From assembly GCA_052327205.1 (NCBI GenBank), contig CM126224.1:64666001-64730000 (forward strand): DNA of 64,000 bases, in the 5' to 3' direction. Each line of letters starts with the position of its first letter. The first letter of the stretch is position 1. Made by a program: the position numbers and the translations under genes. Origin of the DNA: Somniosus microcephalus (taxonomy: Eukaryota). The notes beneath the pieces are model-generated. The model was not told where the DNA came from, ran no database searches, and saw nothing but the letters and a program-made list of their open reading frames with translations. This document shows, one piece after another, positions 5,433 through 49,938 of the stretch.

Positions 5433-7490
5433 TTATAAGTTCAGTCTTTGAGGAGGCTTCCTGATTCTGTCTGGATAACGCCTCTTTGGGGTATCAGGTT
5501 CTTCTGGCAATGTTGAGTCGGAATCAATGTCGTCGTTTGGTTCATCTGCTTCCAATATTACCGGTTCTGCGGTAGCTGCAATTGGAACGTCGATTCCATT
5601 ACCAGGTGTATCAGATCGTGGTGTGGAGTTGACGTTTTCCAGTGACTCTAGAATCTGGTCAGCATGGCGTCTTACAATGCTCTCTCCAACGTCCACGGTA
5701 TACATGAGAGGTCCTTGTCGTGTACAAATCGTTCCTGGTTGCCATTTCTCAGTGCGGTAGTCCCGGGCCAAAACTGGTTGACCTATCTTAAAACTCCTGG
5801 TCGGCCTTTCATTCATATTCTGAAACTGCCTGTTCTCCACATCTCTTCGGACGTTTGGCTTAACCAAATCCAAGCGGCATCGTAGTCTTCGATTGAAGAA
5901 CATCATGGCTGGAGTTTGGTTGGTAACCGCATGTGTCGCATTCCAGTAGGCAAACAAGAAGTTGTCCACCTTGTGTTGTAGGGGTATCTCTTCATTACAC
6001 ATTGCCTTGATAGCCTTCTTGAATGTTTGGACAAACCTCTCGGCCAATCCATTAGTGGCTGGATGATATGGGACAGATGTGTAATGCTTAACACCATTGT
6101 TCTTTAAGAACCTCCGGAACTCTTCAGACACAAACTGTGGTCCATTGTCAGAGCAAATCTGTTCAGGCAGCCCATTCCTGGCGAATATGGTTCGTAAAAC
6201 TGTGATAGTTTTTTCCGTGGTGGTTGAGGACATTTTTATTACCTCTGGCCACTTTGAATGTGCATCCACCGCAATTAAAAACATCGAGTCCATGAAGGGA
6301 CCAGCAAAATCAATGTGCACCCTTTGCCATGGAGATGAGGGCCATTCCCATGGATGCAGAGGAGCTTGTGGTGGGGCGTTTTGGACCTTCTGGCATCCTG
6401 CACAGCTCTTGGTCATCTCTTCGATTTCTCTATCGATTCCCGGCCACCACACAAACGCTCTGGCTAAGTTCTTCATTTTTACCCCACCCAGATGACCCTC
6501 ATGAAGCTCATTGAGCACTCTATCCGTCAACTTAGGTGGAATTACTACTCTGGATCCACACATCAAGGTTCCTCTGCACACTGACAGCTGTTCTCTTCTC
6601 GGCGAGAATGCTGGCAGCAGTGGTTCGCCATGTGCTGGCCATCCCATCACCGTTAAATCATAGACCCGTGATAGTGTCGGGTCATTCCGTGTTTCCTTTT
6701 CTATGTTTGCATTCGTCACAGGAAGACATTCGACTATGGTCGAGTGGAATAACTCCATTGGATCCACTGCAAGGTCTTCTTCTTCCACCATCGGCAACGG
6801 TAGACGTGACAATCCATCAGCATTTCCATGCTGTTTAGTTCCTTTGTACTCGATGTCATATTGGTGTGCCCCTAGGAAAAGGGACCATCTCTGCAGCCGT
6901 TGTGCTGTCATTATCGGTACGCCCTTCTGAGTGTTGAAAATGGAGACAAGAGGTTGATGATCGGTTAGTAGAGTAAATTTTTGACCGTGCAGATAGTGAT
7001 TGAACTTCTTCACCCCCCACACTAGGCTGAGGGCCTCTCTGTCAATTTGGGCGTAGTTACGCTCGGCAGAAGTTAACGAGCGTGACGCAAAAGCTATCGG
7101 CCTCTCCAAACCATCAAGGAATTTATGTGACAGTACCGCCCCAATGCCGTAGGGAGACGCATCACACGCCAGCCTGATTGGCAGTACTGGGTTGTAGTGA
7201 GCCAATACTTCCTTTGAAGTGATTAAGTCCTTACTCTTCCGAAAAGCACGCTTACAATCATCGCTCCATTTCCATGCTACCCCCGTTCGTAGCAGGGCGT
7301 TCAGTGGGTGCAGAATTGTCGACAAATTCGGCAAAAACTTATGATAGTAATTCACCAACCCGAGGAATGACCTCAGTTGCGACACATTTTCAGGCGCTGG
7401 GGCCTTAACAACCGCTTCAATTTTGTCAGGGGACTTATGTAACCCCTCTTCATCAATCACGTGGCCACAATACGATATCTGTTTCTTAAA
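5433..7490 (-). CDS. RT C-terminus, RNase H and integrase portion of the polyprotein (frameshifted continuation)
   Basis: LACDAS and YAQIDREAL (RNase H); HHCC zinc finger; DDE motifs HIDFAGP, SDNGPQF, GLAERFV. Confidence 0.93.
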   Translation of the reverse strand, partial: FKKQISYCGHVIDEEGLHKSPDKIEAVVKAPAPENVSQLRSFLGLVNYYHKFLPNLSTILHPLNALLRTGVAWKWSDDCKRAFRKSKDLITSKEVLAHYNPVLPIRLACDASPYGIGAVLSHKFLDGLERPIAFASRSLTSAERNYAQIDREALSLVWGVKKFNHYLHGQKFTLLTDHQPLVSIFNTQKGVPIMTAQRLQRWSLFLGAHQYDIEYKGTKQHGNADGLSRLPLPMVEEEDLAVDPMELFHSTIVECLPVTNANIEKETRNDPTLSRVYDLTVMGWPAHGEPLLPAFSPRREQLSVCRGTLMCGSRVVIPPKLTDRVLNELHEGHLGGVKMKNLARAFVWWPGIDREIEEMTKSCAGCQKVQNAPPQAPLHPWEWPSSPWQRVHIDFAGPFMDSMFLIAVDAHSKWPEVIKMSSTTTEKTITVLRTIFARNGLPEQICSDNGPQFVSEEFRRFLKNNGVKHYTSVPYHPATNGLAERFVQTFKKAIKAMCNEEIPLQHKVDNFLFAYWNATHAVTNQTPAMMFFNRRLRCRLDLVKPNVRRDVENRQFQNMNERPTRSFKIGQPVLARDYRTEKWQPGTICTRQGPLMYTVDVGESIVRRHADQILESLENVNSTPRSDTPGNGIDVPIAATAEPVILEADEPNDDIDSDSTLPEEPDTPKRRYPDRIRKPPQRLNL

Positions 7491-9393
7491 AAAATTCGCA
7501 CTTGGGGCGGTTGGCTCGCAGCCCATGTTCCCGTAGTCTAGTGAGCACCTGTTCTAGGTTGTTAAGGTGTTCACTGTCATCTTCACCTGTTACAAGGATG
7601 TCGTCCAAGTAACACTGAGTCCCCGGAATCCCTTGCAGGACTTGTTCCATCGCTCTTTGCCATATCGCCGGAGCCGATGCTACTCCGAATACCAATCGAT
7701 GATACTGGTAAAGACCTTTGTGAGTGTTTATCGTGAGATACTTTCTAGAGGACTCTTCAACCTCCATCTGCAAATATGCTTGTGCCAGGTCAATTTTTGT
7801 AAAACGCTTTCCTCCAGACAGCGAGGCGAAGATGTCTTCTATCCTTGGAAGAGGATATTGTACTGTGCGAAGGACAGGGTTCACCGTCACCTTGAAATCC
7901 CCACAGATGCGAATCTTCCTTGGCTCTCCGGACTTATTGCTTAACGTTTTCTTCATGACAGGAACAATGGGTGTCGCCCACTCGCTCCAGTCGACCTTAG
8001 ACAACACACCCGCCTTCTCCAGATTCTCCAGCTCTGCCTCGACAGCTGGGCGAATTGCATATGGTACCGGTCTCGCTTTGAAAAACTTGGGAACTGCATT
8101 CTCTTCTATTTTTATCGAGGCGGTTACGCCTTTAAGCGTGCCCAGTTCTTGTTGAAATACCTCTTTGGCGTTAGCTAAGATTGTTGACAATCGTCCAGGA
8201 GTGACGTCTTCATCTTTTTTACCGTCCACCGTCATTGCATGAATGGAATGCCAATCTAAGTTTATCCTTCTGATCCATTCCCGTCCCAATAACGGTTGTC
8301 CACCATTTGGCAGTATGTAGAGATACAATTTCTGTATTTTCTTGCCATTGTATTCGACAGGCACCCTTATTTTTCCTCTGGGGTATACTTTTTGCCCTGT
8401 ATACATCGTCAAGACGATGGATGTCTCTCTCAAGGGTATGTGTGAAAATAGCCGCTCGTAGTCTCGTCGATTCATGACGGTTAGCGCTGATCCTGTATCC
8501 AATTCCATTTTAACTTGGGACCCTGCTATCGTGAGGGTGACCCAAATGGTTCGGTGATCCTCTTTTGCGATTACATTGTGAAGTTTGAGACAGCTTAATC
8601 TCCTGTTCTCGGATTCACTATCGCTCATCTGGTCTTTGGAACTACTGTCCGTCATCTTTTGTACTTTCTTGTACGGTTCCTTAGTAGCCTTTCTGTTGTC
8701 ACTGGTCTTCTTCCCAGACCTGCAAACTCGTGCAATGTGTCCAATCTTCCCGCATTGTCTGTATATTTTGTCTTTGGACCAGCAGTCCTTCTGGTCATGG
8801 TTAGTTCTGCCGCAGCGATAACATTTTGCAAATCCCCGTGTCATTTCGTGGGTGCCGTATTCCTGTGGTTTTTGTTGAATTTCTGCAGCTCCCCTGGCTG
8901 CTGCTTCATACGATACTGCCACGCTGAAACCCTTATCTAGCGTCAGCTCTTTTTCTGTGAGTAACTTCTTCTGTGTTCCTTCACTCAGGAGTCCACAGAC
9001 AAATTTGTCCCGTAGGGTATCTGCCAGTCCTGCTCCGAACTGGCAGTGCTTTGATAGCTTGCGTAGTTCCGTAAGATACTCAGCATTGCTCTCATCTTTG
9101 TGCTGAGTTCTCCTGTGGAATTTAAATCTTTCTGCTATCAACAGCGGTGCAGGGTTTAAGTGTTCCTGTGGAACAGCAACAATTTCGTTAAAACTCTTCG
9201 CCTTCGGTTTGGCTGGAGTAATCAGATCCCGCAATAGGCCGTACGTTCTAGCGCCCATTAAGTTTAGCAATATCGATGCCTTTTTCCCCTCCGCTATTTC
9301 GTTTGCCTCGAAATATACCTCGACTCTTTCCACATATGTGGTCCAGTCCTCTAATGTATTATCAAAAGCAGTGATACAGCCAGTCTTCGGCAT
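7486..9393 (-). CDS. Gag-protease-RT portion of the retrotransposon polyprotein
   Basis: Zinc knuckle CYRCGRTNHDQKDC, protease LDTGS, RT motifs RICGDFK and YLDD; ends at a T7 run producing TAA. Confidence 0.93.
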   Translation of the reverse strand: MPKTGCITAFDNTLEDWTTYVERVEVYFEANEIAEGKKASILLNLMGARTYGLLRDLITPAKPKAKSFNEIVAVPQEHLNPAPLLIAERFKFHRRTQHKDESNAEYLTELRKLSKHCQFGAGLADTLRDKFVCGLLSEGTQKKLLTEKELTLDKGFSVAVSYEAAARGAAEIQQKPQEYGTHEMTRGFAKCYRCGRTNHDQKDCWSKDKIYRQCGKIGHIARVCRSGKKTSDNRKATKEPYKKVQKMTDSSSKDQMSDSESENRRLSCLKLHNVIAKEDHRTIWVTLTIAGSQVKMELDTGSALTVMNRRDYERLFSHIPLRETSIVLTMYTGQKVYPRGKIRVPVEYNGKKIQKLYLYILPNGGQPLLGREWIRRINLDWHSIHAMTVDGKKDEDVTPGRLSTILANAKEVFQQELGTLKGVTASIKIEENAVPKFFKARPVPYAIRPAVEAELENLEKAGVLSKVDWSEWATPIVPVMKKTLSNKSGEPRKIRICGDFKVTVNPVLRTVQYPLPRIEDIFASLSGGKRFTKIDLAQAYLQMEVEESSRKYLTINTHKGLYQYHRLVFGVASAPAIWQRAMEQVLQGIPGTQCYLDDILVTGEDDSEHLNNLEQVLTRLREHGLRANRPKCEFF

Positions 9394-9927
9394 CTTGCAA
9401 ATCTAAAATGGCGCCTCCCGCGCTTTGTCTTCTTCCCCGCTGTTGTTAGCGCTGCTTTCCACGGTTTCCTGCGCTTTAAATATTGATTCTTTTTCTTTTA
9501 TTATTTTCCCGTCGTGGAGCGGACCCTCTGGGACACTTCCCTCCCTCTTCTTAGGTCCGAACGCTGCCCGGCTTCGAAGCACTGGCCGCGCCCTGTGTGC
9601 TCCACCCTCTCTCTCTCTCTTTGCTTCCCGACTCGCTGCCCGGCCCCGTTGAAAGGCCACCCGATCGAGCTTCAGCCCGCCGCAGCCCAGGAAGGATCAG
9701 AGCACTACCTGCCACCAGCCCGATTAGCTGGGAAACCACGGACCGAGGAACCCAGCCTGGCTCTGGACAATCTCTCCTGCAAGTTTTGAACCCGATGATT
9801 GACGGTCGACGCCCGTTTCTCGAGTTTCAATGGACTCTATTTTTTTTTTCTTCTGGCTCCGACCTTCAACAACGTCATCGGAGCTGCTGCCGAGTTGCAG
9901 GTAAGTACGTTTCTTACTCGTCGCCAG

Positions 9928-17723: not shown

Positions 17724-20700
17724 ATGGAGAATTTGAGGCCACCGGAGTTTTTGAATCTCACGGGAAATGTCGACTACAATTGGCGGACTTTCAAACAACA
17801 ATTCGAACTCTACTTTGCTGCCATCGGATTCGGTACGAAGCCAGACGCAAGAAAAATAGCATTGCTGCTCACGGTTGCAGGCCCACAGGCGATAGAGGTA
17901 TTTAATACATTTGTATTTAATCCAGAGGAGAACAGAGAAAATTTAGACGATGTGCTAAAGAAATTTGATACACCAAAAAGAATGAAACCTATGAAAGATA
18001 CGTGTTCCGTTCGAGGACACAGCGGCAAAATGAGACTTTTGATAGCTTTGTGACCGATCTGAAACTGAAAGCACAGACATGTAATTTCTCTGAGCTGAAA
18101 GCATCCATGATTCGTGACCAAATTGTGTTTGGTATTCATGGTAAAAAGGTCAGGGAACGTCTGTTGAGAGAAACCGAACTAACATTGGAAAATGCTGTGA
18201 ATATATGCCAAGCCAGTGAGCTAGCTCGACAGCACGCGAAGACTTTCAGTGAAATCAATAATGATGCGATTGTAGTAAGTGCTGCTGTTGGTGCTGTGTT
18301 CTACAAGGGGAAGCAACATGGGCAGAACAGAATTGAAAAGCAATCGGAGGAAGGAATTTTTAATTGTAAACGCTGTGGTTACAAACGCCAGTTAAAACAA
18401 TGCCCAGTGTTTGAAAAAATGTGCACAAAATGTCATGGAAAGAATCACTTTGCCAAACAATGCTTTTCAAAAGTAAAAACAAAGAAAGGGCAACAAGTCC
18501 GAGTTAATGTGATTGAGGACACTGATTTAAGTGAGACATTTTTTGTAGGAATGGTGTCATGTGACAATATAGAAAAGGATACAGAAAATGTGCAGCCCTC
18601 AGGAATAAACAATGCTGAACATAACGTCAATGCAGTAAAAGAGGACAAATGGATGATCCCACTGCAGGTAAATGGAGCATTAGTTACATTGAAACTAGAC
18701 ACTGGGGCAAAAGCAAACTTAATCAGTATGAGTGACATTAAAAACATGAAAGAAAAGCCCAAAATACAGAAAAAGTCAGTACTACTGAAGAGCTATAATG
18801 GACAGAAAATAGATAGCTTAGGTGTATGCAGACTTAAAGTGACAGTCAAAGACAAAGTGCATCATCTCATGTTTTCTGTTGTGGCTGAAGGACTTGATTC
18901 ACTACTGGGTGACAAAGCTTGTGAGGACTTAGAACTGGTCAAGAGAGTATACCGTATAAACTGTGCCATAAACAGACCAGATGACTCAGTGGATTCTGTA
19001 GTAAATAATTTCTAGGATGTGTTCAAAGGATTTGGAGTTCTACCATTCACTTACAAGATCCAGCTAAAGGAGGATGCTCAGCCAGTGGTACATGCTCCAC
19101 GAAGAGTTCCAGCACCCCTGCGTGACCGGCTCAAGAAAGAACTGGACAGAATGACCACACTAGGGCCCAGAAATTCACTATGGCCCCGCCAGCTGGCTAG
19201 CGCCCAAAAGTTAGCGCTGGGCGCGGAGCCAGTTGCGACCGTCAGATATTCAGTTTTTGCGCCCCAAGTTGGAACCGGGCGCTATTCCAGGGTGTGCCCG
19301 CCCCCGCTTGGGGCACTGAAACTGAATTTCAGCGCTCTAGGCGCCGCTGTGCCACCCGCTGCGGAGCGGCAGGCTGCGGTACTGCAGGCCTCCTCCTTCT
19401 CTTAAGGGGGAGGTGCCTGCCACGGGGAGATCGCCGCTGGATTGTGCCGGCAAATGAGCCCGGCACCACGGAGAAGTGCCGGGTTCGCGGAAAGCAGCCG
19501 GCAATGCCGCGGGGGGGTTGGGGGGGGGGTGGTGGAGGAGGCCGGGGAAGGAGGTGCGGGCAGGCGGCTGGCGAAAAAGCGGCCGGCCGCATCGCCACCT
19601 TAAAGCGCCCCACTAAGGCTACAGTACGGCCCCGTTTTCTGGTCGCTGTTTGCGGCCGCTGCGGAAGAGGCGGCCGCAACTAAATATGGGGATCGGGCCG
19701 GTATCGGGGCGGAACCGGGGCACTGCGCACACCGATGACGTCATCGGTGCTGGCGCAGCGCTAACGGCTACCGCCGCCATTACCGCTGCACTGAATATCA
19801 GCGCAAACTCCTGTATTGGCGCAGAAGCCCTCTTTAGGCGGTAACTGGCCGCAAAGCTGTCGGCGCCTTAATGAATTTCTAGGCCCAGGAGTCATCAGGA
19901 AAGTCGAAGAGCCAACAGACTGGGTTAACTCTATGGTATGTGTGAAGAAAAAGAACAATGATCTAAGAATATGCATGGATCCAAAGGACTTAAATGCAAA
20001 CATAAAACGTGAACACTACCAGGTTCCCAAGCGAGAAGAAAATCACCAGTGAAATGTCAGGTGCCAGATACTTTACAAAGCTCGATGCCTCACAAGGATT
20101 TTGGCAACTAAAACTGGATGAAGAGAGCACCAAATACTGTACCTTCAACACACCATTTGGCAGGTATTGTTTCCTCAGAATGCCTTTCGGGATAATATCT
20201 GCTTCTGAAATCTTTCATAGAGCAATGGAACACATAATTGAAGGTCTGGAAGGAGTTTGGGTCTATGTTGATGACATCATCATCTGGGGCTCCACACTGA
20301 AAGAACACAATGAGAGACTGACTAAAGTGCTACAGAGCATACGCCGGAATGGACTGAAGCTCAACAAAGCCAACTGTCAGTTTGGCGTCCAGGAAGTCAC
20401 TTTCCTAGGAGATAATCTATCTGGTAAAGGAATAGAGCCAGATATGGAAAAAGTAAACGCCATACTCAACATGCCCCGACCCACTGATAAAAAAGGAGTG
20501 CTACGCATCATGGGGATGATAAACTTCATTGGAAAGTTCATTCCTAACTTGTCAGCCAAGACAGCCTGTCTGCGAGACCTGCTACATAAAACAAATGAGT
20601 TCGCATGGACAGAAAAACATGAACAAGAGTGGATGAACCTCAAAACAGTGCTGACAACCACACCTGTACTCACTTTCTTTGACCCAACAAAGAGAATCAA

Positions 20701-22379
20701 AGTGTCAACGGATGCATCAAAGGATGGCCTAGGCGCGGTCTTGCTACAAGCAGAGGGTGAAGATTGGAAGCCTGTTGCCTATGCCTCTAGGTCTATGACT
20801 GATACTGAGTGTCGATACGCCCAGATTGAAAAGGAATGTCTAGGCTTGGTAGTTGGATTAGAAAAGTTCCATGGCTACATATATGGACTTCCCACCTTCA
20901 CAGTTGAGACAGACCACAGCCCACTGGTTGCCATCATAAAAAAGAACCTGAATGAGATGTCTCCAAGGATTCAATGACTCATGATGAAGCTGCAAAGATA
21001 TGACTTTGAACTGATCTACACACCAGGCAAATACATAGTGTTAGCAGATGCACTATCCCAAGCACCCACAATGAGTCATGTGAGCTCTACTGAAGAAGAC
21101 GTGGATGTTCATGTGAGTATGGTCACTGCTGCGCTGCCCGTGTCAGACACAAAATCAAAGCAAATAGCAGAAGAAACAGTAAAAGATACAGTGTTACAAA
21201 CAGTAATAGAGAACATTAATCATGGTTGGCCAAAAGGTTCCTGTCCAAAATACTTTCACATAAGGTCAGAATTGAGTGTCGCAAGTGGACTATTACTAAA
21301 ACAGAACAGAATAGTCATTCCACAGGCTCTACATCAAGACATGCTCAAAAGGATTCATGAGGGACACCTCAGAATTGAAAAATGCAAAAGGAGAGCAAGA
21401 GACACTGTTTATTGGCCTGGCATAAATAAGGACATTGAGAACATGATAGGCAAATGTGAGACATGTCAGAAACACCAAAACAAACAAGCAAAGGAACCAA
21501 TGATAGTAGCTGACATACCCAACAGCACCATGGCAAAAGGTTGGTATGGACCTTTTTCATTTGAATGGTAAAGAATATCTAATAGTGATTGACTACTATT
21601 CTAACTATCCTGAGATGGCGCTGCTCTCAAGCACCACAGCAAGCAATGTCATAATGCATGTGAAATCCATCTTCGCCAGACATGGAATTCCCAGGATTGC
21701 CATTAGCGACAATGGTCCGTGCTTCAACTGTAAGGAGTGGCAACAGTTTGCAGCACAGTATGACTTTCAGCACATCACATCCAGTCCTCTATATGCTCAG
21801 TCAAATGGTAGGGCAGAGAAAGGTGTTCAAGTTCTCAAGCAGCTACTGAAGAAAGCGACAGAAAGCAAGTCTGATCCTTATCTCGCCCTGCTGAGCTACC
21901 GAGCCTCACCTTTAGACTCTGGTTCTTCACCTGCTGAACTACTAATGGGTCGCAAGTTGCGCACCACGCTACCCTGCTGTGCAAAAGAACAGCAAAGTAA
22001 GGAACTGAGACAGAGACTTCAACTGTTAAAGCTGAAACAGAAATCATACTATGACAAGTCATCCAAAACTCTAAAACCATTGACAAGGGATGATGTTGTC
22101 AGGATTGAGGATCCAGATGCATGGAACAGGAAAGCTACAGTTCTTGAGGAAGTACGATCAAGGTCATACACTGTTAGAACTGAGGAAGGACAGATTCTCA
22201 GGAGGAACCGCCGTTCCCTCCTGAAAACACAAGAAACTATCCAAGAGCAGATTGATGACAATGCCGCAACTGAATCTTGTCATTCACCACCAGAACAATC
22301 TCATGAAAACACATCAGACTTACCCGTGCTGAGAAGATCCACACGTGTAGTAAAAAAGCCTGATAGACTTAATCTTTGA
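17724..22379 (+). pseudogene. gag-pol of the inner Gypsy, broken by frameshifts, stops and a MITE
   Basis: Zinc knuckle CTKCHGKNHFAKQC, LDTGA, YVDD, STDAS, SDNGPCF, GRAEKGV; stops at 19013 and 20975. Confidence 0.92.
19164..19885. mobile_element. GC-rich non-autonomous DNA transposon (MITE, Harbinger/PIF-like)
   Basis: ~31-bp imperfect TIRs GGCCCAGAAATTCACTATGG... / ...CCTTAATGAATTTCTAGGCC; removing it restores the RT frame RMTTLGVIRKV; flanks TAG and CAG. Confidence 0.85.
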
Positions 22380-22839
22380 GTACAAAGAAAAACTATATTG
22401 AAAATGTATTGACTGTTGTGAAAATGTTTATGTTTATAGAGCACTAACAAAAGTGTTACTGATATCATCTTTATCGTTTTTCTTGAAAGTTGAATGATAT
22501 TGATTTTGTTAACCTCAAAGAAAGGGGGATGTAATGATCAATAACATGTCATTCTGGAGTGGTACACTAGATGGAGCCGTAGAGCTGTATCGAGCTGTAT
22601 ATTTAGTTGTATGTGTTTAAGACTACACTACCCATGATGCACTAGGCTACCCAGAAGGCAGTAGTCAAGATGGAAGCCTGCACACAGAAGTACACATGCT
22701 GAGTCTCTACAGATGCTGTACCTAGAGAACGTGTACTGAATAAATGTCGAGCTAAAAGCTAGCTGTTCATAATAAGAATGTCTAGTTATTAATGAACATA
22801 ACACTTTGGTGGCTCTGCCACATGTGCCCCCCCCAGAAT

Positions 22840-25800
22840 TGTCTTTAACAGCAAAAGTGAGACGTCGAGGAGGCCTGACAAGTCTGTCTGAGCGACTTCG
22901 GTAACCCTGCAGAGGAAGCTGATGGACGGTGGTCGAGCTGGTGGGCGGTTGTGGTTGAGCTGACGCGGCGAGTGTGGTCGAGCTGGTGGGCGGCTGTGGT
23001 TGATCTGGCATGGCGGCTGCGGGCGGTCGGCCATGTTTCGGTGGTTGAGCGACGACTACTGGGCGGTCCAGGTCCAGGTGAGCCGGCTTCAACCGGTCCA
23101 CCGAAATGTGGTCCGGCTTTCCTCCGATGTCGACCGAAAAGGATTTGTCTCCTGATTCGATGACGCGGAAAGGACCAGTGTAAGGGGGCTTGAGCGGATC
23201 CCGGTGAGCATCGTGGCGGATAAATACGTACTCGGCGTTCTTCGGCTCCGCTGGCACGTGGGAGCTCTGTAGGCTGTGATTTGATGTAGGCACTGGAGCG
23301 AAGCATCTGGCCGCTTCCTGGTGGCTGACGAGTTGCTGGGAGGCGGACCATGGCTCTGTGGGAGAAGGGAGGAAATCCCCTGGTACTCGGAGCGGCTGGC
23401 CATAAACGAGTTCGGCCGAGGACGATTGCAGGTCTTCTTTGGGCGCCGTACGAAGACTCAAAAGGACCCATGGGAGTCTGTCCACCCATCCCGCACCTTG
23501 AAGACTGGCCCGTAGGGCGGCTTTAAGCGACCTGTGGAATCGCTCGCAAAGGCCATTTGCCTGTGGATGATAGGCGGTGGTGTGATGAAGTTTGGTGCCG
23601 AGCACCTGAGCTACGGCGTTCCAGAGCTCCGAGGAAAATTGTGGCCCACGATCGGAAGAGATGTCCGCCGGTACCCCGAAATGAGCAACCCAACAAGAGA
23701 TGAAAGCTCTAGCGACGTCTGCAGAAGTGGAGGAAACCAAAGGAATTGCCTCTGGCCACCTAGTGGTGCGGTCCACCATGGTGAGGAGATGCGTATAACC
23801 ATGAGAAGGCGGAAGTGGCCCCACAAGGTCCACATGTACGTGGTCGAAACGACGCTCCGGAACAGCGAACGTAGCCACTGGAGCTTTTACATGACGCTGG
23901 ACCTTGGCCTTCTGGCAGACCACGCAGGTGTTGGCCCAGTCACAGACATCGAGGTGCATACCTTTCCAGACGAACTTCACCGACATTAGCCGTTGTGAAG
24001 CCTTCATACCAGGGTGCGACAACCCGTGTATGGCGTCAAACACCTTCCGGCGCCATGCGACTGGCACGATAGGTCGGGGAACGCCCATGGAGATGTCGCA
24101 AAGGAGCGTGGTGCCTACGGCCTGGAAACTGACGTCGGTCGCTTGGAAACTAGAGGGAACGGCTCTGTATGATTGGACCTCTGGGTCCGAGGCCTGATCT
24201 GCAGCCATGAGGGCGTAGTCAATCCCCAGGTGAACCGCATGGACCGTCGCACGGGAGAGGCAATCTGCTACCAGGTTGTCTTTACCAGACACGTGTTGAA
24301 TGTCCGTGGTAAATTCAGAAATAAACGTCAGGTGACGTTGTTGACAAGCTGACCACGGTTCGGCGGTCTTGGCCATGGCGAACGTTAGAGGCTTGTGGTC
24401 GACAAAAGCCGTGAAGGGACGTCTTCTAATAAGAACCGGAAATGGCGAATGGCTAGAAAAAGGGCCAGCAACTCTCGATCGAAGGTGCTGTACTTTCTTT
24501 CATTTTTCCGTAGTTGACGGCTGAAAAACGCCAGCGGTTGCCACGTGCTGTTCACCCACTACTCCTGCACTGCGCCGATGGCGTAGTCTGACGCATCTGT
24601 GGTAAGGGCGATGGTGGCACCTGGAAGTGGGTGCGCCAGCATGGTTGCATTGGCCAAAGCGTTCTTGGTGTTGACGAACGCCTGGTCCATCTCGGCCATC
24701 CAGCTGATTGGATCCTTACCGGACTTGCCCTTGAGGGCCCCGTACAAAGGCTGCATTAGCTGAGCCGCCTTAGGGACGAATCGGTGATAGAAATTGACCA
24801 TCCCCAGGAACTCTTGCAGGGCCTTGATGGTTGGCGGGCGCGGGAAAGAGGTAACAGCTTCCACCTTCGTCAGTAAGGGGACGGCGCCGTCTGATGTTAT
24901 GCGGTGTCCCAAGAAATCGATCCGCTGCAGGCCGAACTGGCGCTTGGCCGGGTTGATGATCAAACCGTGCTGGCTGAGGCGTGTAAAGAGGGTACGCAAA
25001 TGGCAGATGTGCTCTTCCTTGCTAGCGCTGGTGATGAGAATGTCGTCAAGGTAGACGAAGATGAAGTTTAGGTCTCGGAGCACGGAGTCCATCAAGCGCT
25101 GGAAAGCCTGTGCCGCGTTCTTCAAGCCAAACGGCATCCGCAGGAACTCAAAAAGGCCGAAAGGGGTGATGACTGCGGTTTTCGGGACGTCTTGCGGGTG
25201 CACGGGAACCTGGTGATAACCCCGGACGAGGTCGACTTTAGAAAAGATAGAATTTCCCGCCAAATGGGCCGAGAAATCCTGAATATGCGGGATTGGGTAC
25301 CGATCAGGAGTAGTGGCGTCGTTCAGGCGTCGGTAGTCACCGCATGGCCGCCGGCCGCCAGCCACCGCCCGGTTTTGGAACAATGTGGAGAGGCGAAGAC
25401 CAGGGACTATTCGACCGGCGAATAATCCCCAGCCGCTCCATCGTGTCGAACTCCGCTTTCGCAGCCATGAGCTTGCCGGGTTCAAGCCTTCTAGCCCGTG
25501 CATAAACCAGGAAGCCAGTAGTGGTGATATGATGTTCAACACCATGCTTCGTGGCCGAGGAGGAGAAAGTGGGCCTGGTCAGCTCCGGGAACTCTCCGAG
25601 GAGCCGAGTGAAGTCATCTGGAGAAGGGAACGCGCAGGCGATAGAGCGCGCCACGGTGGTACCGTGGTGGCACGGAATCGAGTGGAAGGTGGCCGCGTTG
25701 ATCAAGCGGCGGTGCCGGACATCGACGAGGAGGCCGTTGGCACACAGAAAATCCGCCCCTAGGATGGCCTGCGAGACTGTGGCCGTGACGAATTCCTAAT

Positions 25801-26040
25801 GGAAGCGCTGACCGCCGAAACAGACTTGGACCCGCCGCTTTCGGAAAGTTCGAATGGCTGCGCCATCAGCCGCCACGAGGGAAAAGCTGTGGTCCCCAGC
25901 TTGCATATCGAGATTCGACGCAGGTAGGATGCTACACTGCACCCCGGTGTCACAAAGGAAACGTCGACCCGAAAGGGAATCGATGATGTAAAGGAGTTTC
26001 CCCATAGATCCGATGGCCATCGCAGCCGCAGAGCGCCCAT
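22840..26040 (-). pseudogene. pol (PR-RT-RH-IN) of the CsRn1-like element, with stops and frameshifts
   Basis: [52 protein letters not shown] and a GPF-like C-terminus, spread over several ORFs. Confidence 0.9.
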
Positions 26041-26709
26041 TAGACCCGGTCCTCCTTCGCCAGGAACGCTGCAGGAGCTTTGTTTTTTTGGGGGCGAAAA
26101 GCTGCAGGGAGAGTGGCAGCATCGTGCTTTCGCGCCAAAATGGGCGTGGTAGGAGCACCAGCCCGCTGCAAGAGGAGCTGGAGCCGCGTCTGTGGGGGCT
26201 GGGCGCCTCATGGCTGCGCAGCACTGCTGGGTAACTGTGAAAATCTTATCTGCTTCGGCAGCAAGCTCGGCGCAGTCTGTGATCTCGGACCTGGCTAGGG
26301 CAGCCTGCACCTGCTCCGGCAGTTGGCAGAGGAATAGCTCCCGGAAGAGGAAGCATTCCGGTTCGGTACCTAAGAGTGTGAGCATTTGGCTCATGAGCTC
26401 GGACGGTTTGGAGTCCCCGAGGCCGGGCATAGCGAGGAGCCGGTGAGCGCGTTCTGACTTCGAGAGCCCGAAGACTTGTAGCAACCACGCCTTTAACGTA
26501 TCATACTTGCGGTCAGTAGGAGGACTACCGAGGAGGCTGATGATCCGCGAGGCAGTGGCGCTATCGAGGGCAGAGACCACGTAGTAATAACGGGTCTGAT
26601 CCGCGACGATGTTCCTGATGGCGAACTGGGCTTCAGCCTGGATGAACCACGCGGCTGGTTCTTGCTCCCAGAACTGTGGCAGTTTCAGAGTCACGGCGTT
26701 CATTTCCAT
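26040..26709 (-). pseudogene. gag of the CsRn1-like element
   Basis: MEMNAVTLKLPQFW...WFIQAEAQF; C-x2-H-x9-C-x3-C motif; 3' limit approximate. Confidence 0.88.
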
Positions 26710-27450
26710 GCTGAAGATCTTTCGCGAAAACCGTTCACGAAAGTCGGGGTCACCAATGTAGGAACGTGGGTTCCTAACTAAAAGACTGAGTTCTACTCAG
26801 GCGATCAAACAAAACGAACTTTAATGAAACAAACAGGTTTTAACAAGAAACTGCAGGATAACATCGAATGTAGGTCTGCTCTCTCTGGAGGCTCCACGAG
26901 GACTGCTCCTGCAGTCCCGTGGCTGACGTCATGACGTTTTCCCGCCAGTGGGGAATCACGTGATGAACGGCGTGACGTCATCACGTTTTAGCCGCGCTGT
27001 TAAAGTAACCACACTCTGTACGGTTAAACAGCATAAATAAAGATACAGACTCAGACTGTAGCTAACATGTTGTTAAAGGAATTATACACAAACGATCTGA
27101 GTCCTTTGGTGGCTCCGCCACAGTGCAAATGTTACCTACATCAGCAAGGCCTGGATGTTATCTTGATCCTGCTGCAGGCTTACATTGATCGCTTCATTAT
27201 CGGAGGAGTTGTGAATGGAGCTGAACAATGTGGAATTGTTAGAGTACAGTCCCACTCTGACGTTATGATGGAGGGAAGGTCATTGATGAAACAGCTGAAG
27301 ATGGATGGGTCGAGCATGCTTCCCTGAGGAACTCCTGCAGTGATGTCCAGGGGTTGTGATGACTGGCTTCCAACAACCACAACTATCTTCCTTTGTATCA
27401 GGTTTGATTCCAGCCACTGGACAGTTTTCTCTTTGACCACCATTAACTTA

Positions 27451-42720: not shown

Positions 42721-44179
42721 ACAAAACTCACATGATCACACTTTGCCAGTGAGATTCCTCAAAAGGGGCGCCCAATTCTTTGATAATTGCCAGAGGATCC
42801 TGGTTTCATATGTGGCTGCAGCAATGGGCAATGTGTTCATCTCTAGGGAGCTGGGAACCTGCTGACCTGTTGGGCAGTGGTTAAGGCACAAGATATTTAA
42901 TATAAAGATGGACTCTGTATTTTCTGAGTGAATATGATTATAGCCTAGGCTCTGCAGGAACCACCTATTCAGTTTGTAGTAAATGTTATTGTGACATAGT
43001 GGACAGGAAGTGCTGTGTGTGGTTGTCGAGGGTCTGTGCCAGTTCAATTTTCCTTGTCTTAAATGTTCTTTGCTCCTCAATATTTCTAAACTAAGGAGCA
43101 AGTCTCCAAGCTCTCAGTACAAGTAACTTCGATTGGTCAGGTGTTGAGTGCAAACATTCTGTTCTCTTTTGCCCAAAGTAGAAGACTAATGTGATAAATA
43201 TCCAGAAGATATATTAGACAAGCCTTTCAGAATCCAAATTTAAAAGGCAAGAAAAGCTATGCTGTTTAGATGGCATGGCAACACCAGGAACCAATCCTAT
43301 TTCCCTCTACTGCTTTAAAGAGAACCAATAAAACAGGCCTGTCCCACAAGCATTAGCATAGCATGAACCAAGGTACTAATTAGAATTCAGCACTCTCGAC
43401 TGAGATTACAATGCCCCAGCTAGCCTGTGGTACGGCATGACTGTCCACAATGTCCTGTATTATTTAAGAATGGTGGGAGAAAGAAACTAGGTAACTACAT
43501 ACATGTCAGATTAGCGATAGTTGTGGGGAAGCTACTAGAATCTGTCATTGGGGATAGAGTGACTGGGCACTTGAACAAATTAGGTCTGATCAGAGAGCCA
43601 ACATAGCTTTAAGGCTAAGTCATGTCTGAGTAATCTAGTTGAGTTTTTCGAGGGGGTCACTAATGAGGTAGATATGGGAGTGTCTATGGATGTGATCACT
43701 ATGGACTTCCAGTCGGCATTCGATAAGGTTCCACACGAGGCTATTGGCAACAATGAGAGAGCACGGAATTGGAGGTAGCCTTTTGACTTAGGTTGGAAAT
43801 TGGTTCGGAGGTAGGAGACAGAGTGGGGATAAAGGGTAGCAACTCTGATTGGTGGGATATGATGAATGGTGTTCCCCAGGGATCTGTACTGGGGCCTCAT
43901 CTTTTCACTATTTATCAATGACTTGGATGAAGGAATAGAGTTGCATATCCAAGTTTGCAGATGACACCAAGTTAGGAGGCACAGTAAGTAGTGCAGATGG
44001 GAGCAAGATGTTGCAAAGGGACTTAGACAGATTAAATGAGTGGGCAAAACTGACACATGGAGTTCAGTGTGGGCAAGCGTGAGGCCATCCACTTTGGACC
44101 CAAGAAAGATAGATCAAATTATCTTCTAAATGCTGAAAAACTAGGGACTGTTGAGGAGAAAAGAGATTTGGGAGTCCTT

Positions 44180-44895
44180 GGGGAGAAATTCAGTATCGCC
44201 CCGTTTTTGAAATTCTGAAAAATTAGCACCAGGTGCTAATGATGGTGAGCTTCCAGTAGATTGTCTGTTAGTGCTCCAGGAAGGAAGTGGAGCTCTAAAT
44301 CAAGGGCTACCACTTCCCTTGGAGCGCTAAAGCTGGCTGGAGGGGCGGTAGGGGTGCAGCACTACCCAATGTCGAGGGCGGTGCTGCTGGGAACTGAGGC
44401 TCCTTCCCTCCTTTAAAGGAAGGGCCATTGTTGCAGGCTCTGAAATGAAACGAGGTCCCTCGTCGCCGACAGCATCTGCGAACCGCCACGATCAGCCCCA
44501 AGCACTCTAGCAGAGTGCAGAGCTGATCGATCGTGGCCCAAGAAAATAATGAAAAATGAATGTTAAGCTTCATGACTTTTTTTTTCCCCCGCAACCATTA
44601 ACCCCTTTAAACAGTGCCCCTGAAGCGCCCGGCCTCCCGAACAATGGCTCCTGCAGCTGTCGGTGTGGTCGCCCGGCGATGCTGCAGGGGGCGGAACTGA
44701 ATTTCAGGTCCGGGGTGATGCGCAGGACGATGACATCGTGATCTCTGGGCGCAGGAGATCATGGGGTTACCGCCACCGCAAACCTCCAGGTGAATTTAGT
44801 AGGAGTTGTCTCTTTCGCTGTGCCTGGGCGATAAGTCGTTAGCGCCCCGTTATCACCCCCCCTGGAGGTGCTAACCAACAGCATTTCTACCCCCA
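44180..44895. mobile_element. GC-rich MITE with GGGG(T)AGAAAT termini
   Basis: Left GGGGAGAAATTC, right CATTTCTACCCC; interrupts CR1; shares internal motifs (CTGAATTTCAG, GATGAC) with 19164-19885. Confidence 0.72.
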
Positions 44896-45227
44896 GTACC
44901 CATATCATTAAAAGCCAGTATATAGGCGCTAAAAGCAATCAAAAAGGCGATGGTTAGCCTGTATCTCGAGGGCTGGAATACAAAGGGTAGGAAGTTATGT
45001 TTCAGTTGTACAGAGCCTTGGTCAGACCCTATCTGGACACTGCGCTCAACTTTGGGCATGGCACCTCCGGAAGGATATACAGTATTGGCCTTGGAGTGGG
45101 TGCAGCACAGAGTCACCAGAATGATACCGGGGCTTAGAGGGTTAAATTGAGGGCAGGTTGCATAATCCTGGCTTGTAGTCCCTTGAGTATTGGAGATTGA
45201 GGGTTGATCTGTTCGAGATGTTTAAAA

Positions 45228-46113
45228 GTGTACAGCGATTTGTATCTAACAGTGTGAATGGCCAAGCGATCCCTCAAAACTTATTGTTTGGGTTGAACAT
45301 TCACTCAGTGAACGATCTGCTGATAAACATGGTGATGAGTGATGAAAATGACATATTTATATTACAACTGTTGCTACACCGCCCTTTGCATTCTGCCCCG
45401 ACTGCAAGGACATGGCTTTGCTTAGCACAGAGGAGCAGAACGCCCACTGTCTACAGCATGGCTTCATGCTTCACACAAAGTACCAGGTGGTGTATCCCTT
45501 CCCCACATTTCAGCCTGCCTTCCAGCTCAAGAAAGACGGAGTGGTGTTACTCAATACCAGCTACTGACTGGTAGCATGTGCAATATCGGTAAACACAACG
45601 GGTGAGAAAGGACAGATTCTGTACAGTAAGAGCAGTGAAAACAGCGAACCGCCAGGATCCCGTGAGGTGGACCCTAGTCTTATTTCACCAGTAATGGACA
45701 GTGTCGTGTCCGGTTATCAGCAGTGCGAAGGCATGAATCGCCCTTTAGCCAGCGACGGAACATCGGACTGCATCTTCCACAAAGCCGACACTAACAGCTG
45801 CTCGCGCACTGAAAGCTGCTCTGAGGAAACGCTGAGCTGGGAACTTAAAAGCTCTAAGCACGTGGTATTGGCTGAGTGTAACCCGGCCCACTGTGACTGA
45901 TCCTCTGCCGCAGGCAAGGCAAAGGAATTTGCAGCTGACATTTTCAGGCGAGCCCGAGCTGCCACGAGTGCCACTGAAGCGTCGTGTAGTTTAGGTGAAG
46001 CTGTATCCAAACAAAAGGAAGATGCCCTACAAGGGCCAGCCACAGAAGACTGCCGCAAGCTGCTCAGTACACAGAGAAACGAGGCGTCTGAATTCGCACC
46101 TTCCTCCTCTGAG
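45228..46113 (+). pseudogene. DCAF15: Processed pseudogene fragment of DCAF15 (DDB1- and CUL4-associated factor 15)
   Basis: Translates, across frameshifts, VYSDLYLTV(C)EWPSD...[15 protein letters not shown]...[47 protein letters not shown]...GKAKEFAADIFRRAR, matching DCAF15 motifs as I recall them; stops at 45565 and 45898; no intron-like gaps. Confidence 0.9.
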
Positions 46114-47255
46114 CATAAGAGATTAGTGTGTAAAGTTAAAGCACATGAGATTGGGGGCAAGGTACTGACTTGGATAGAGAACTGGCTGGCAGACAGGAAG
46201 CAAAGAGTTGGAATAAACGGCTCTTCCAAGTGGCAGGCAGTGACTAGTGGGGTACCGCAGGGATCGGTCCTTGGACCCCAGCTGTTCACAATATATATTA
46301 ATGATCTAGACGAGGGAACTAGATGTAATATCTCCAAGTTTGCAGACGACACAAAGCTGGGTGGGCGTGTGTGCTGTGAGGAAGATGCCGAGAAACTCCA
46401 GTATGATTTGGACAGGTTGGGTGATTGGGCAGATGTATGGCAGATGCAGTATAATGTGGATAAATGCAAGGTTATCCACTTTGGTGGCAAAAACAGGAAG
46501 GCAGATTATTATCTGAACGGCAATAGATTGGGAGAAGGGGAAGTGCAACGAGACCTGGGTGTCCTTGTGCACCAGTCACTGAAAGTAAGTATGCAGGTGC
46601 AGCAGGTGGTTAAGAAGGCAAATGGTATGTTGGCCTTCATAGCGAGAGGGTTCGAGTACAGGAACTAGGATGTTTTGCTGCAGTTGTACAGGGACTTGGT
46701 GAGACCACACCTTGAGTATTGTGTGCAGTTTTGGTCGCCTTATCTGAGGAAGGATGTTCTTGCCATGGAGGGAGTGCAGCGAAGATTCACCAGACTGATA
46801 CCTGGGATGGCAGGAATGACATATGAGGAGAGATTGGGTCGATTGGGCTTATATTTGCTGGAGTTTAGAAGAATGAGGAGATCTCATTGAAATTTATATA
46901 ATTCTAACAGGACTAGACAGACTAGATGCAGGAAGGATGTTCCTGATGGTGGGGGAGTCCAGAACCAGGGGTCACAGTCTAAGGATAAGGGGTAAGCCTT
47001 TTAGGACAGAGATGAGGAGGAATTTCTTCACCCAGAGAGTGGTGAACCTGTGGAATTCTTTGCCAAAGAAGGCAGTAGAGGACAATTCATTAAATATATT
47101 CAAGAAGGAGTTAGATATATTTCTTAAGGCTAAAGGGATATGGGGAGAAGGCAGGGACCGGGTACTGAATTTGGATGATCAGCCATGATCTCATTGAATG
47201 GCGGAGCAGGCTCGAGGGGCCGAATGGCCGCCTCCTCTTATCTTCTATGTTTCTA
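46114..47255 (+). mobile_element. CR1 3' half joined to the DCAF15 fragment
   Basis: [27 protein letters not shown], 3' UTR and TTCTATGTTTCTA tail. Confidence 0.93.
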
Positions 47256-47558
47256 TAAAATGTTTAAAGGATTTGATAGGGTAGATACGGAGAAACTATT
47301 TTCTCTGGAATCAAAGCACTTTTTCACACAAAGGATGGTAGAAATTTGGAACTATCTGCTCCAAAAGATGAGAAAATAAAGTTGAGGCTCAGATCAGCCA
47401 TGATCTATTTAAGTAGCAGAGCAGGCCCGAGGGGCTGAACAGTCTACTCTTATTCCTGATGTTCCTGTATCTAATACATGTCCTGTGTCAAACTAACACT
47501 ATACCTTTGTAGTTGGGTCACTGTACCTGCACTAACCTGTACTGTGCAAAATACAATA

Positions 47559-49938
47559 CAGGAACTTTGTGGTATACGGGACCGGCGTGTTGCCGATCTA
47601 TCAAAAGTTCCGGATGACTGAGCGGTTTATCTACCCAGGCTATTTTTAACAAAGAAAAATGTAAAAATCAAGAAATGTGCAATATACAGTAATTGGGTAC
47701 TCACCTACAGAATGTTGTGTTAAATGGATGGTGAAAGATGCTTGATTAAGTACAGTACTGCCAGTTGATGGTAATCCATAACTCTTTAATTACTTAAGTC
47801 GTTTATAAGTTTTGTTTTACTGTTAACAGTACACCAAAACTTATAAATGACTGTACAGTAAAAAGTACTGTACGGTGGTTGACTATACACTTATTCCAAG
47901 CCAACTAGTTCATCAGGAATATCCATGCCAGCTGGGTCATCGGGATCATGCACTTCAACAGATTCTTCAGGCACTTCCACTGCTCCAGCTCTTTTGGAAG
48001 CTTTCTTAAACATGTCCCGGATGTCTGCTTGCTTAGTGGACTCTTGCCTTCTTTGTAGAAAGGTGGAATGCAGAATATGGAGGTGCATAACATCTTGGGC
48101 AGAATAGCAAGAATGGCTTTCAGCAAATTTAAGTAATGAAACAAAATCTTCTGCAGCTTTAGCCCAAGAAATCTTGTTCTCTTCAGAAATCTCATCCTCC
48201 TCATTTTCCATCACACTTTTCTTTCTTTGGATTCAAAACATTCTCCATTATTTCATCATCACTTAGAGAAGTTGCTGTTGTGCATTTGCTATCGGCATCA
48301 ACCCACTGCTCAATATCACGTTCACTGAGGTGATGTAGAGGGTTTGCTGGGCCTACATCTTTCACCATGCCAGCCATTTCCATTACTGAAGTCCTCCTCG
48401 GACGAACATTGAACCCATGAAATTCCTCCTCTGAAGAAGAACCTTCAGCAAACATGACAGAAGGCCACAATTTGCACCAGGCTTGTCTCAAAGTGCAACC
48501 TTTCACCAATTTCCAGGAACATGCAACATTAAAGATGGCATCTTTAAGATTGTATTCCTTCTGAAATGCCTGAATACCTGTATTGTCATCTTGGCTTATC
48601 AGTCTACGTAGGAAGTCTTGTAATGACACTTGAGATTTTGGATAATGCCCTGGTCCATGGGTTGTATGAGAGAAGTTACATTTGGTGGCAAATAAATGGT
48701 GAAAATATTTCCAGAAACCAACTCTGATTCATGCGGATGGGCTCTACAATTATCCAGCAATAAAATGCATTTGCTATCTTCAGGTTTCCTTATTCTATGG
48801 AAATGTTCCCTCACAGATGGAACAAAAATATGATGGAACCAATTCGAAAAGATTTCCTTATCCATCCAAGCATTTGTTTGAGCTTTGTACTCAACAGGTA
48901 AGTGCTTCACATTCTTAAATGCACGGGGATTTTTATACTTCCCAATGACGAGAAGTTTAGCCCGGTGTGATCCAGCAGCGTTCGCACATGTTAGCACGGT
49001 TACACGATCTTTATTTTTCTTGTAACCTGAAGCATTAGCCTCACTAGCCCCAGCAAGCGTTGATTCTGGCAAAAACCTCCAAAATAAGCCAGTTTTATCA
49101 GCATTGCATAGCTGTGCTGGCGACAAATCATGTTGCTGCACAATCCGATTGAAATAATCGCAGTATTCTTCTGCGGCGTCGTGATCAGCTGATTTCTTCT
49201 CCCCGGAAATATCGAGTCGTCGTATCCCGTGCCGTACCTTGAAGCACGTTAGTCATCCATCAGAGAAAGCACACTTGTCAGTGAACTCCATCTTTGCGTA
49301 GAAATCCTTCGCTTTTTCGATTAGCATGGGTCCGGAAATCAGAACACCCACTCATAAAGCACGGTATCCAGCTCTTCAAGCTTAGGCTTACGAAGCGTAT
49401 GCCGTTTCTCTACACTCTTGGATGTCTCCGAGCTTGCATAAAACTTGAGCAGCTTATCCTTCTGTGCTTTGATGTCGTAGATTGTTGACTAACCGATTTT
49501 GAATTCATTCATAATGTTCATACGCTTCTCTCCCCTTTCTAGTCGTTGACATATATCGATTTTCTGTTTTAAAGTTAACACCACTCTCTTTGGTTGGATC
49601 AACTTTTGGGATTTCCATAATGCAATCCAATGAGTTCCAACAGCGTTGGAGACACACAGTACTGGAACCCCGGAAAATGGTGGATCAGAAGAGGCTACCG
49701 GCAGCGTGGGAGAGTCAGACTCCTGATGCAGGGTTTCTGAGGTGTTCGACTTCCGATGGCGCCAAGAGGCCGAATAGTGGCAGTTTGGAGAACTGCCCCC
49801 ACTGACTAACTCGGCAACCGTTGGAGACTCGGACTCGGCAACATTGCCGGTTATTGAGGTGTTGTTTTCGGAGCGAGAATTTTGCTGGTGTATAGAGCAT
49901 TCCGGATATTTAGTTGCCGTTTAAACGAAAGTTTCCTG
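47559..49938 (-). mobile_element. Tigger/pogo (Tc1-mariner superfamily) DNA transposon with a disrupted Jerky-like transposase
   Basis: TA TSDs (47557-47558, 49939-49940); CAGGAA(A)CTTT TIRs; CENP-B-type HTH KRVVLTLKQKIDIC; [26 protein letters not shown]. Confidence 0.92.

Follow-up and report, generated by a model that had tools for sequence, protein, structure and literature searches.

A dead DCAF15 mRNA retrocopy and a CR1 3' end within one insertion site of the Somniosus microcephalus genome

Cellular RNAs fused to LINEs

Chimeras between cellular RNAs and LINEs are established for L1 and, with U6 as the cellular partner, for L2 and RTE (PMC4476161). The U6 cases described by Doucet et al. 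(2015, PMC4476161) include U6-L2 and U6-Mon-1 (platypus), U6-L2/RTE (Anolis), and one gapped, unresolved U6-CR1 case in the turkey. Among mammalian mRNA/LINE-1 chimeras, 17 have been reported with L1, and most of the sense cases contain a first exon, have splice sites at the joint, and often carry a near full-length L1 (Law and Burns 2026, PMC13174262). For CR1, reviews state that the element recognises its own RNA, so that few or almost no retrocopies are expected (PMC5470649, PMC3136929, PMC3747384). A 2026 preprint puts the number of retrocopies in cartilaginous fishes at 14,081 and states, from correlation, that retroduplication outside mammals is sustained by CR1 or Tx1 (10.64898/2026.06.26.734816); its main text uses neither "template switch" nor "chimer". 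In the literature searched, whose coverage leaves subscription papers mostly outside, we found no described or characterised case in which a CR1 tail is attached to a spliced mRNA.

Here we describe such a case, in which a dead DCAF15 mRNA retrocopy and a CR1 3' end lie within one insertion site (45228-47256 of the window analysed). RNA-LINE chimeras as such are already known; new are CR1 as the LINE and an internal piece of mRNA as its partner. The locus is a clean single case and provides a direct molecular example of CR1 retrocopying, with the parent, the lost introns, and the target site resolved. By itself it is a single dead copy without function.

The closest described systems each share part of this anatomy. 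As in the U6-LINE chimeras, which were ascribed to template switching (PMC4476161), a cellular RNA lies 5' of a truncated stringent LINE in the same orientation and within a short target site duplication (TSD), but here the partner is a spliced protein-coding mRNA spanning three exon joints, the LINE is a CR1, and the structure is fully resolved, in contrast to the turkey case. Like the mRNA/LINE-1 chimeras (PMC13174262), the locus has spliced exons 5' of a LINE in one duplication; unlike them, its DCAF15 part ends on both sides within coding exons, uses no splice site, and has a TSD of 5 bp. A blunt fusion of cellular RNA to a 5'-truncated LINE is also seen in the RtcB-dependent U6/L1 chimeras (Moldovan et al. 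2019, PMC6789731), although U6 joins by its natural cyclic-phosphate end, whereas the DCAF15 mRNA is joined within its length. In LTR-mediated partial retrocopies (Tan et al. 2016, PMC5131818; PMC5470649), too, a piece from inside an mRNA was captured, by template switching; these are flanked by LTRs on both sides, while DCAF15-CR1 has a LINE tail on one side only.

Structure, target site and age of the insertion

The window is a 64,000-nt stretch (G000:C23:64666001-64730000) of a 6.4-Gb assembly. It is repeat-dense, with LTR retrotransposons, LINE fragments and a DDE transposase, and gave no Rfam match across its length. The features of the chimera and its target are collected in Table 1.

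Table 1. Chimeric insertion and interrupted target (positions within the window; parental coordinates on C31 of the same assembly)
Feature	Position	Strand	Remarks
Older CR1, left of insertion	44896..45227	+	further part at about 43461-44180
TSD TAAAA, left copy	45223..45227	+	5 bp
Parental exon A, 3' part	45228..45297	+	= C31:36512428-36512501; two 2-nt deletions
Parental exon B, complete	45298..45430	+	= C31:36513542-36513678; one 4-nt deletion
Parental exon C, complete	45431..45601	+	= C31:36514763-36514933; stop at 45566
Parental exon D (long), 5' part	45602..46112	+	from C31:36516503; stop at 45898
5'-truncated CR1-type LINE	46113..47256	+	broken end of RT frame, 3' UTR, short TATGTTTCTAT-type tail
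TSD TAAAA, right copy	47256..47260	+	T common to CR1 tail
Older CR1, right of insertion	47261..47465	+	reaches own tail

The host-derived part had been annotated as DCAF15-like, and homology searches bear this out. The frame at 45352-45564 matches Pfam DCAF15_WD40 (PF14939, E 2.3e-23) and residues 181-250 of human DCAF15 in the PDB (E 3e-28). A DNA search of the genome with 45228-46113 gave five hits, of which one is the chimera and the others are four exons on C31 (91-98% alike), while only the chimera locus and the C31 gene matched in a family search (4 matches among 13 candidates). As 5/5 DNA-search candidates are the chimera or its parent's exons, the genome holds one fusion copy and not a dispersed, mobile SINE-like family. 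In the parental gene, whose exon A spans C31:36512395-36512501, AG precedes all four exons, GT follows the first three, and the joined exons read open. The precise intron loss expected for a spliced template was found: the four exons abut exactly in the window, without any intron sequence, so all three parental introns (about 1.0, 1.1, and 1.6 kb) are gone, exactly at their AG/GT boundaries, and the template was spliced mRNA. The copy begins 33 nt inside exon A and ends 315 nt before the end of exon D, and is therefore a coding fragment from inside the message, lacking both of its ends. The initial annotation described it as an 886-bp gapless segment; it is indeed intron-free, but 2, 2, and 4 nt are missing (all in short repeats) and a Ser-codon tract is 9 nt shorter than in the assembly's parent. 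This tract (parent exon D, G000:C31:36516990-36517020), which lies beside the joint, seems to differ in length between genomes, being long in this assembly and in organism B and probably short in organism A, like the retrocopy. An explanation of the shorter tract as a slip at re-priming was dropped, as contigs (524 vs 533 nt) suggest that the parent in organism A has the short tract.

The DCAF15 copy is dead. It was promoterless and without a start codon from the outset, is truncated at both ends, and has decayed since insertion. Its 29 substitutions relative to the parent (in 884 nt) comprise 18 silent and 9 missense changes and the two stops, which, together with frameshifts at 45252, 45285, and 45353, confirm the decay reported initially. 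Of 11 CpG losses, 7 are silent vs 41% expected (p 0.22), so that selection on the copy is not evident. Two stops, three frameshifts, the missing start codon and no evident purifying selection set the copy apart from a functional retrogene. Equally, it does not resemble a classical L1-type processed pseudogene, as it ends mid-coding exon in a CR1 tail and has no TSD of ~15 bp; poly(A) is absent throughout 45228-47256. The few RNA reads over the stop at 45566 carry the parent letter (6/6 in run X22, with one start, and 1/1 in run X21).

The 3' half contains a match to RVT_1 (E 3.9e-15) and belongs to a LINE family with a CR1-type RT. It shows CR1-type traits, namely a non-LTR RT, a short tandem-repeat tail without poly(A), and many 5'-truncated copies; CR1 is the clade name that its sequence motifs suggest. 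To this half we aligned 29 sister loci (L015-L043; 2440 first-look candidates in the genome), which were chosen as best matches and thus form a biased sample. The half ends at the family's own 3' end (47256), and nearly all sisters end at the same tail; folding of the 3' region (47160-47256) gave an uninformative z of 0.53. Six of the 29 sisters are truncated no more than 40 nt upstream of the position of the chimera's joint, pointing to a possible pause site near the joint, an observation confounded by the choice of sisters.

The unit splits an older CR1 and is bounded by a TAAAA duplication, as noted initially: TAAAA closes the left flank, and AAAA follows the CR1 tail on the right. With the TSD counted a single time, the left and right flanks form one gap-free alignment over the junction with further copies of the older CR1. 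Seven matches span the rejoined flanks, three of them at the same place and the best 80% alike, all judged against paralogous copies of the older CR1. Models with overlaps of 9 nt and 0 nt need gaps and score lower than the 5-nt overlap, and a 9-bp duplication (ATGTTTAAA) was rejected for the gap that it requires in the older CR1 alignment. A direct TSD search in 25 sister copies gave 0-6 nt, with mismatched-end controls at about 4 nt on average; the 5-bp match alone is thus at chance level, and the evidence for the TSD is the gap-free rejoining of the older CR1. In five sisters whose insertion sites lie in recognisable repeats, the overlap is short or a small stretch is missing. The DCAF15 and CR1 parts therefore share one target site, of which 5 bp were duplicated and no base was lost. 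This length fits stringent LINEs such as ZfL2-1 (5 bp vs about 15 bp for L1, PMC4245944) and the U6-L2 chimeras (1-9 bp, PMC4476161), not L1. At the 5' end, the last two bases of the left TAAAA (AA) are common to the target and to the parental exon just before the copied part, a 2-nt microhomology; 5' microhomology of truncated inserts has been described (PMC4245944).

Both halves are also of similar age, with about 2-3% divergence of their own. The CR1 half differs from the majority letter of the 29 sisters at 38 of 1144 nt (3.3%), where the sisters' own distances from the majority are 1.7-4.2% (median 2.6%). For the DCAF15 half, organism D served as an outgroup over 509 nt of exon D: among the listed sites it agrees with the parent at 11, with the copy at 4, and with neither at 3, with 3 of the 17 D differences unlisted, which places 11-14 changes (2.2-2.8%) on the copy's branch and suggests that the chimera arose near the split from organism D. 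Contigs of organism D (runs X7 and X14, two studies) contain only exon-bounded, parent-type DCAF15 pieces. In contigs of runs X1 and X2 (organisms A and B, one study), the exon-exon joints are crossed with 0 differences, so the retrocopy is not an assembly artefact; these contigs are simplified, filtered mosaics, and one of the two organisms may be the assembly's own sample.

Target site and age bear on the reading in which a poly(A) retrocopy and a CR1 were inserted independently at the same spot, followed by deletion of the 3' part of the retrocopy. The genome does contain ordinary old retrocopies (two of RPS3A), and a 5-nt duplication can arise by chance. However, the CR1 tail abuts the TSD and the older CR1 resumes without a base lost, so the deletion must have ended exactly there, and the halves would have to share their age; such a history appears most improbable.

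Other mobile elements surround the chimera. The older CR1 is also interrupted by a 0.7-kb element with short inverted ends (44180-44895), which may be a non-autonomous DNA transposon; an end similar to that of this element interrupts the sister CR1 copy L020. Close behind the chimera lies a broken Tigger/pogo-like transposase (48201-49920, -; DDE_1, E 1.5e-44). Three LTR retrotransposons (5433-9402, -; 17969-22379, +; 22628-26796, -) carry RT, RNase H, and integrase frames, with a protease in two and long open frames in one.

The DCAF15/CR1 joint and its origin

At the joint, the sequence is ..TCTGA AGCAACG in the parent, ..GTCCC GCATAAG in the sister CR1 copies, and ..TCTGA GCATAAG in the window. 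We place the joint at 46112/46113 instead of ~46113/46114, as initially given: at G46113, 21 of the 29 sister CR1 copies have the same letter as the window, and the parent has an A. With G46113 derived from CR1, the previously proposed microhomology of about 1 nt becomes 0 nt exactly, or 3 nt (GCA) if one A is skipped. GCA is common to both templates if this A of the mRNA was skipped or later lost, and in the case of a later loss the original joint was out of frame. The reading frame is open across the joint, in agreement with the earlier description; its being in frame is probably chance (one case in three), with no sign of use. None of the listed contigs and reads crosses the DCAF15/CR1 joint or either end of the unit, so that the assembly is the only source for the joint.

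The joint falls in the middle of an exon, away from any splice site or poly(A), and the parent has no GT after it, nor the CR1 an AG before it. The 80 kb around the parent contain five CR1 matches (E<1e-30), every one of them in antisense orientation. Together, these observations exclude cis- and trans-splicing, and the splicing reading favoured for most mRNA/L1 chimeras (PMC13174262) is inapplicable to a joint without splice signals. An antisense CR1 located 1 kb downstream of parental exon D (90.6% alike) is not the source of the chimera's CR1; that pairing with it acted as a tether is speculation.

A single insertion event that was primed on the CR1 3' end and brought in spliced DCAF15 mRNA is near certain. 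Directly observed are the spliced template, the CR1 tail at the priming side, one site, one age, and the lack of a splice signal or poly(A). Strict recognition of the 3' end is a trait taken from other CR1/L2 elements (PMC5470649, PMC4476161, PMC3747384). Whereas this part of the initial annotation stands, the template switch from CR1 RNA onto spliced DCAF15 mRNA that it proposed is the likeliest way of joining the two and somewhat more probable than not, the sequence by itself being equally compatible with RNA ligation and with read-through of a CR1 in a lost allele. In this scenario, the CR1 ORF2 protein would have nicked the older CR1 and primed on its own tail, and its RT would have copied about 1.14 kb of CR1 RNA before stalling. 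The RT would then have re-primed inside exon D of the DCAF15 mRNA, with no pairing or with GCA, and copied 885 nt across three exon joints, after which the cDNA end may have been joined to the target through the 2-nt AA match. As the insertion must have occurred in the germline or early embryo, spliced DCAF15 RNA would have been present there. The 0-nt exact homology fits equally well a ligation or an ordinary CR1 5' insertion junction, and three further readings of the join need to be weighed.

The same anatomy, including a mid-exon joint with as little homology as at ordinary CR1 5' ends, would be expected from read-through (5' transduction), in which a truncated CR1 was inserted in exon D of one allele, the spliced transcript was retroposed via the CR1 tail, and the allele was later lost. 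Chimeras by L1 promoter co-option and cis-splicing are known (RAP1GDS1, PMC13174262). We nevertheless regard this course as unlikely: the parental exon is intact here and, up to the joint, in the contigs of organism D, with no scar; sense CR1 is absent from the 80 kb around the parent; and two rare events would presumably have been required in a short-lived null allele.

The exact homology of 0 nt is what would be left if a cut DCAF15 mRNA and a cut CR1 RNA had been joined by an RtcB-type ligation and the fusion retroposed via the CR1 tail. Ligation has been demonstrated for U6/L1, where experiments favour it over template switching, and has been put forward in that system for 3'-truncated RNAs generated by endoribonuclease cleavage (PMC6789731). 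An mRNA, however, has no standing 2',3'-cyclic phosphate, internal cuts would be needed in both RNAs, and the near-match GCA on both templates hints at primer pairing. A weak further point is that RNA reads of run X22 ending at the joint run on into ordinary CR1 sequence, with no chimeric read among those listed from about 31% of this run. On balance, ligation seems quite unlikely.

Finally, a separately made DCAF15 cDNA, for instance from a Tx1/L1-like or LTR enzyme, might have been end-joined 5' of the CR1 insertion as long extra nucleotides. LTR elements are plentiful in the window, and about half of ZfL2-2 copies have extra 5' nucleotides (PMC4245944), but the described extras are only several nucleotides long, and chance would have to account for the shared orientation and for the missing poly(A) or LTR sequence, making this a very improbable origin. 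Template switching, read-through, ligation, and separate cDNA synthesis all have in common that the CR1 machinery integrated a piece of host mRNA.

Occurrence of CR1-tailed retrocopies

The locus provides a countable signature for retrocopies of this type, consisting of exon-exon joints, a CR1 tail, a short duplication, and no poly(A). The initial annotation called for a genome scan for further junctions of host exons with CR1 3' ends; the sister flanks and gene families examined here yielded none. In the 5' flanks of the sister CR1 copies, no spliced host piece was found (0/25, of 29 sisters; 93 open frames); the one weak host hit, to ERGIC_N and below the cut-off, proved to be an ordinary exon that has splice sites, about 490 nt upstream. 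Genome searches with the families of RPS3A, chaperonins, proteasome subunits, Ras, E2 enzymes, DEAD helicases, and SLU7 revealed two old RPS3A retrocopies and intact genes of a single exon, but no young or CR1-tailed retrocopy among the loci inspected; an uninformative search with the Sds3 family matched nothing, the parent gene included. We inspected 12 of the 55 E2 matches and one further locus, as well as the two RPS3A retrocopies, and looked for neighbouring CR1s at eight intron-less candidates; the Ras and DEAD matches were judged from tables, and the searches score the best candidates only and miss short or broken pieces. An E2 match on C33 beside a 1263-aa frame proved to be an exon next to a simple repeat.

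Regular occurrence of CR1-tailed retrocopies in this genome thus finds no support in these small, insensitive samples. That CR1-tail capture is a regular, so far undescribed retrocopy route in cartilaginous fishes, with the CR1 enzyme jumping into mid-mRNA, is doubtful on present evidence. If true, an appreciable fraction of the retrocopies that sharks and rays carry by the thousand would be internal, poly(A)-less exon blocks with a CR1 tail, some of them fused in frame to the RT; the rule that host genes are beyond the reach of CR1 would then no longer hold, and these genomes would have a way to shuffle exons. The route to retrogenes envisaged in the initial annotation is possible, while the copy itself is promoterless and truncated at both ends, and no second case was found among the loci examined.

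Several loci met in the family searches are of separate interest. The two old RPS3A retrocopies (L046, G000:C25:24889636; L047, G000:C5:205684696) are 69-87% alike to the parent's exons, with no strong CR1 match directly behind either. Their upstream DNA is also alike (69% over 774 nt), and they may therefore descend from one ancient insertion. An intron-less, intact chaperonin frame of 521 codons (L050, G000:C7:28957242-28958720; Cpn60_TCP1, E 1e-155), which looks CCT6-like and much diverged, is a candidate for an old functional retrogene. A second, GC-rich UBE2N-like gene (L170, G000:C33:37211865-37212094) lies beside a long simple repeat and has an apparent 1-nt exon frameshift, which may reflect an assembly error or a pseudogene.
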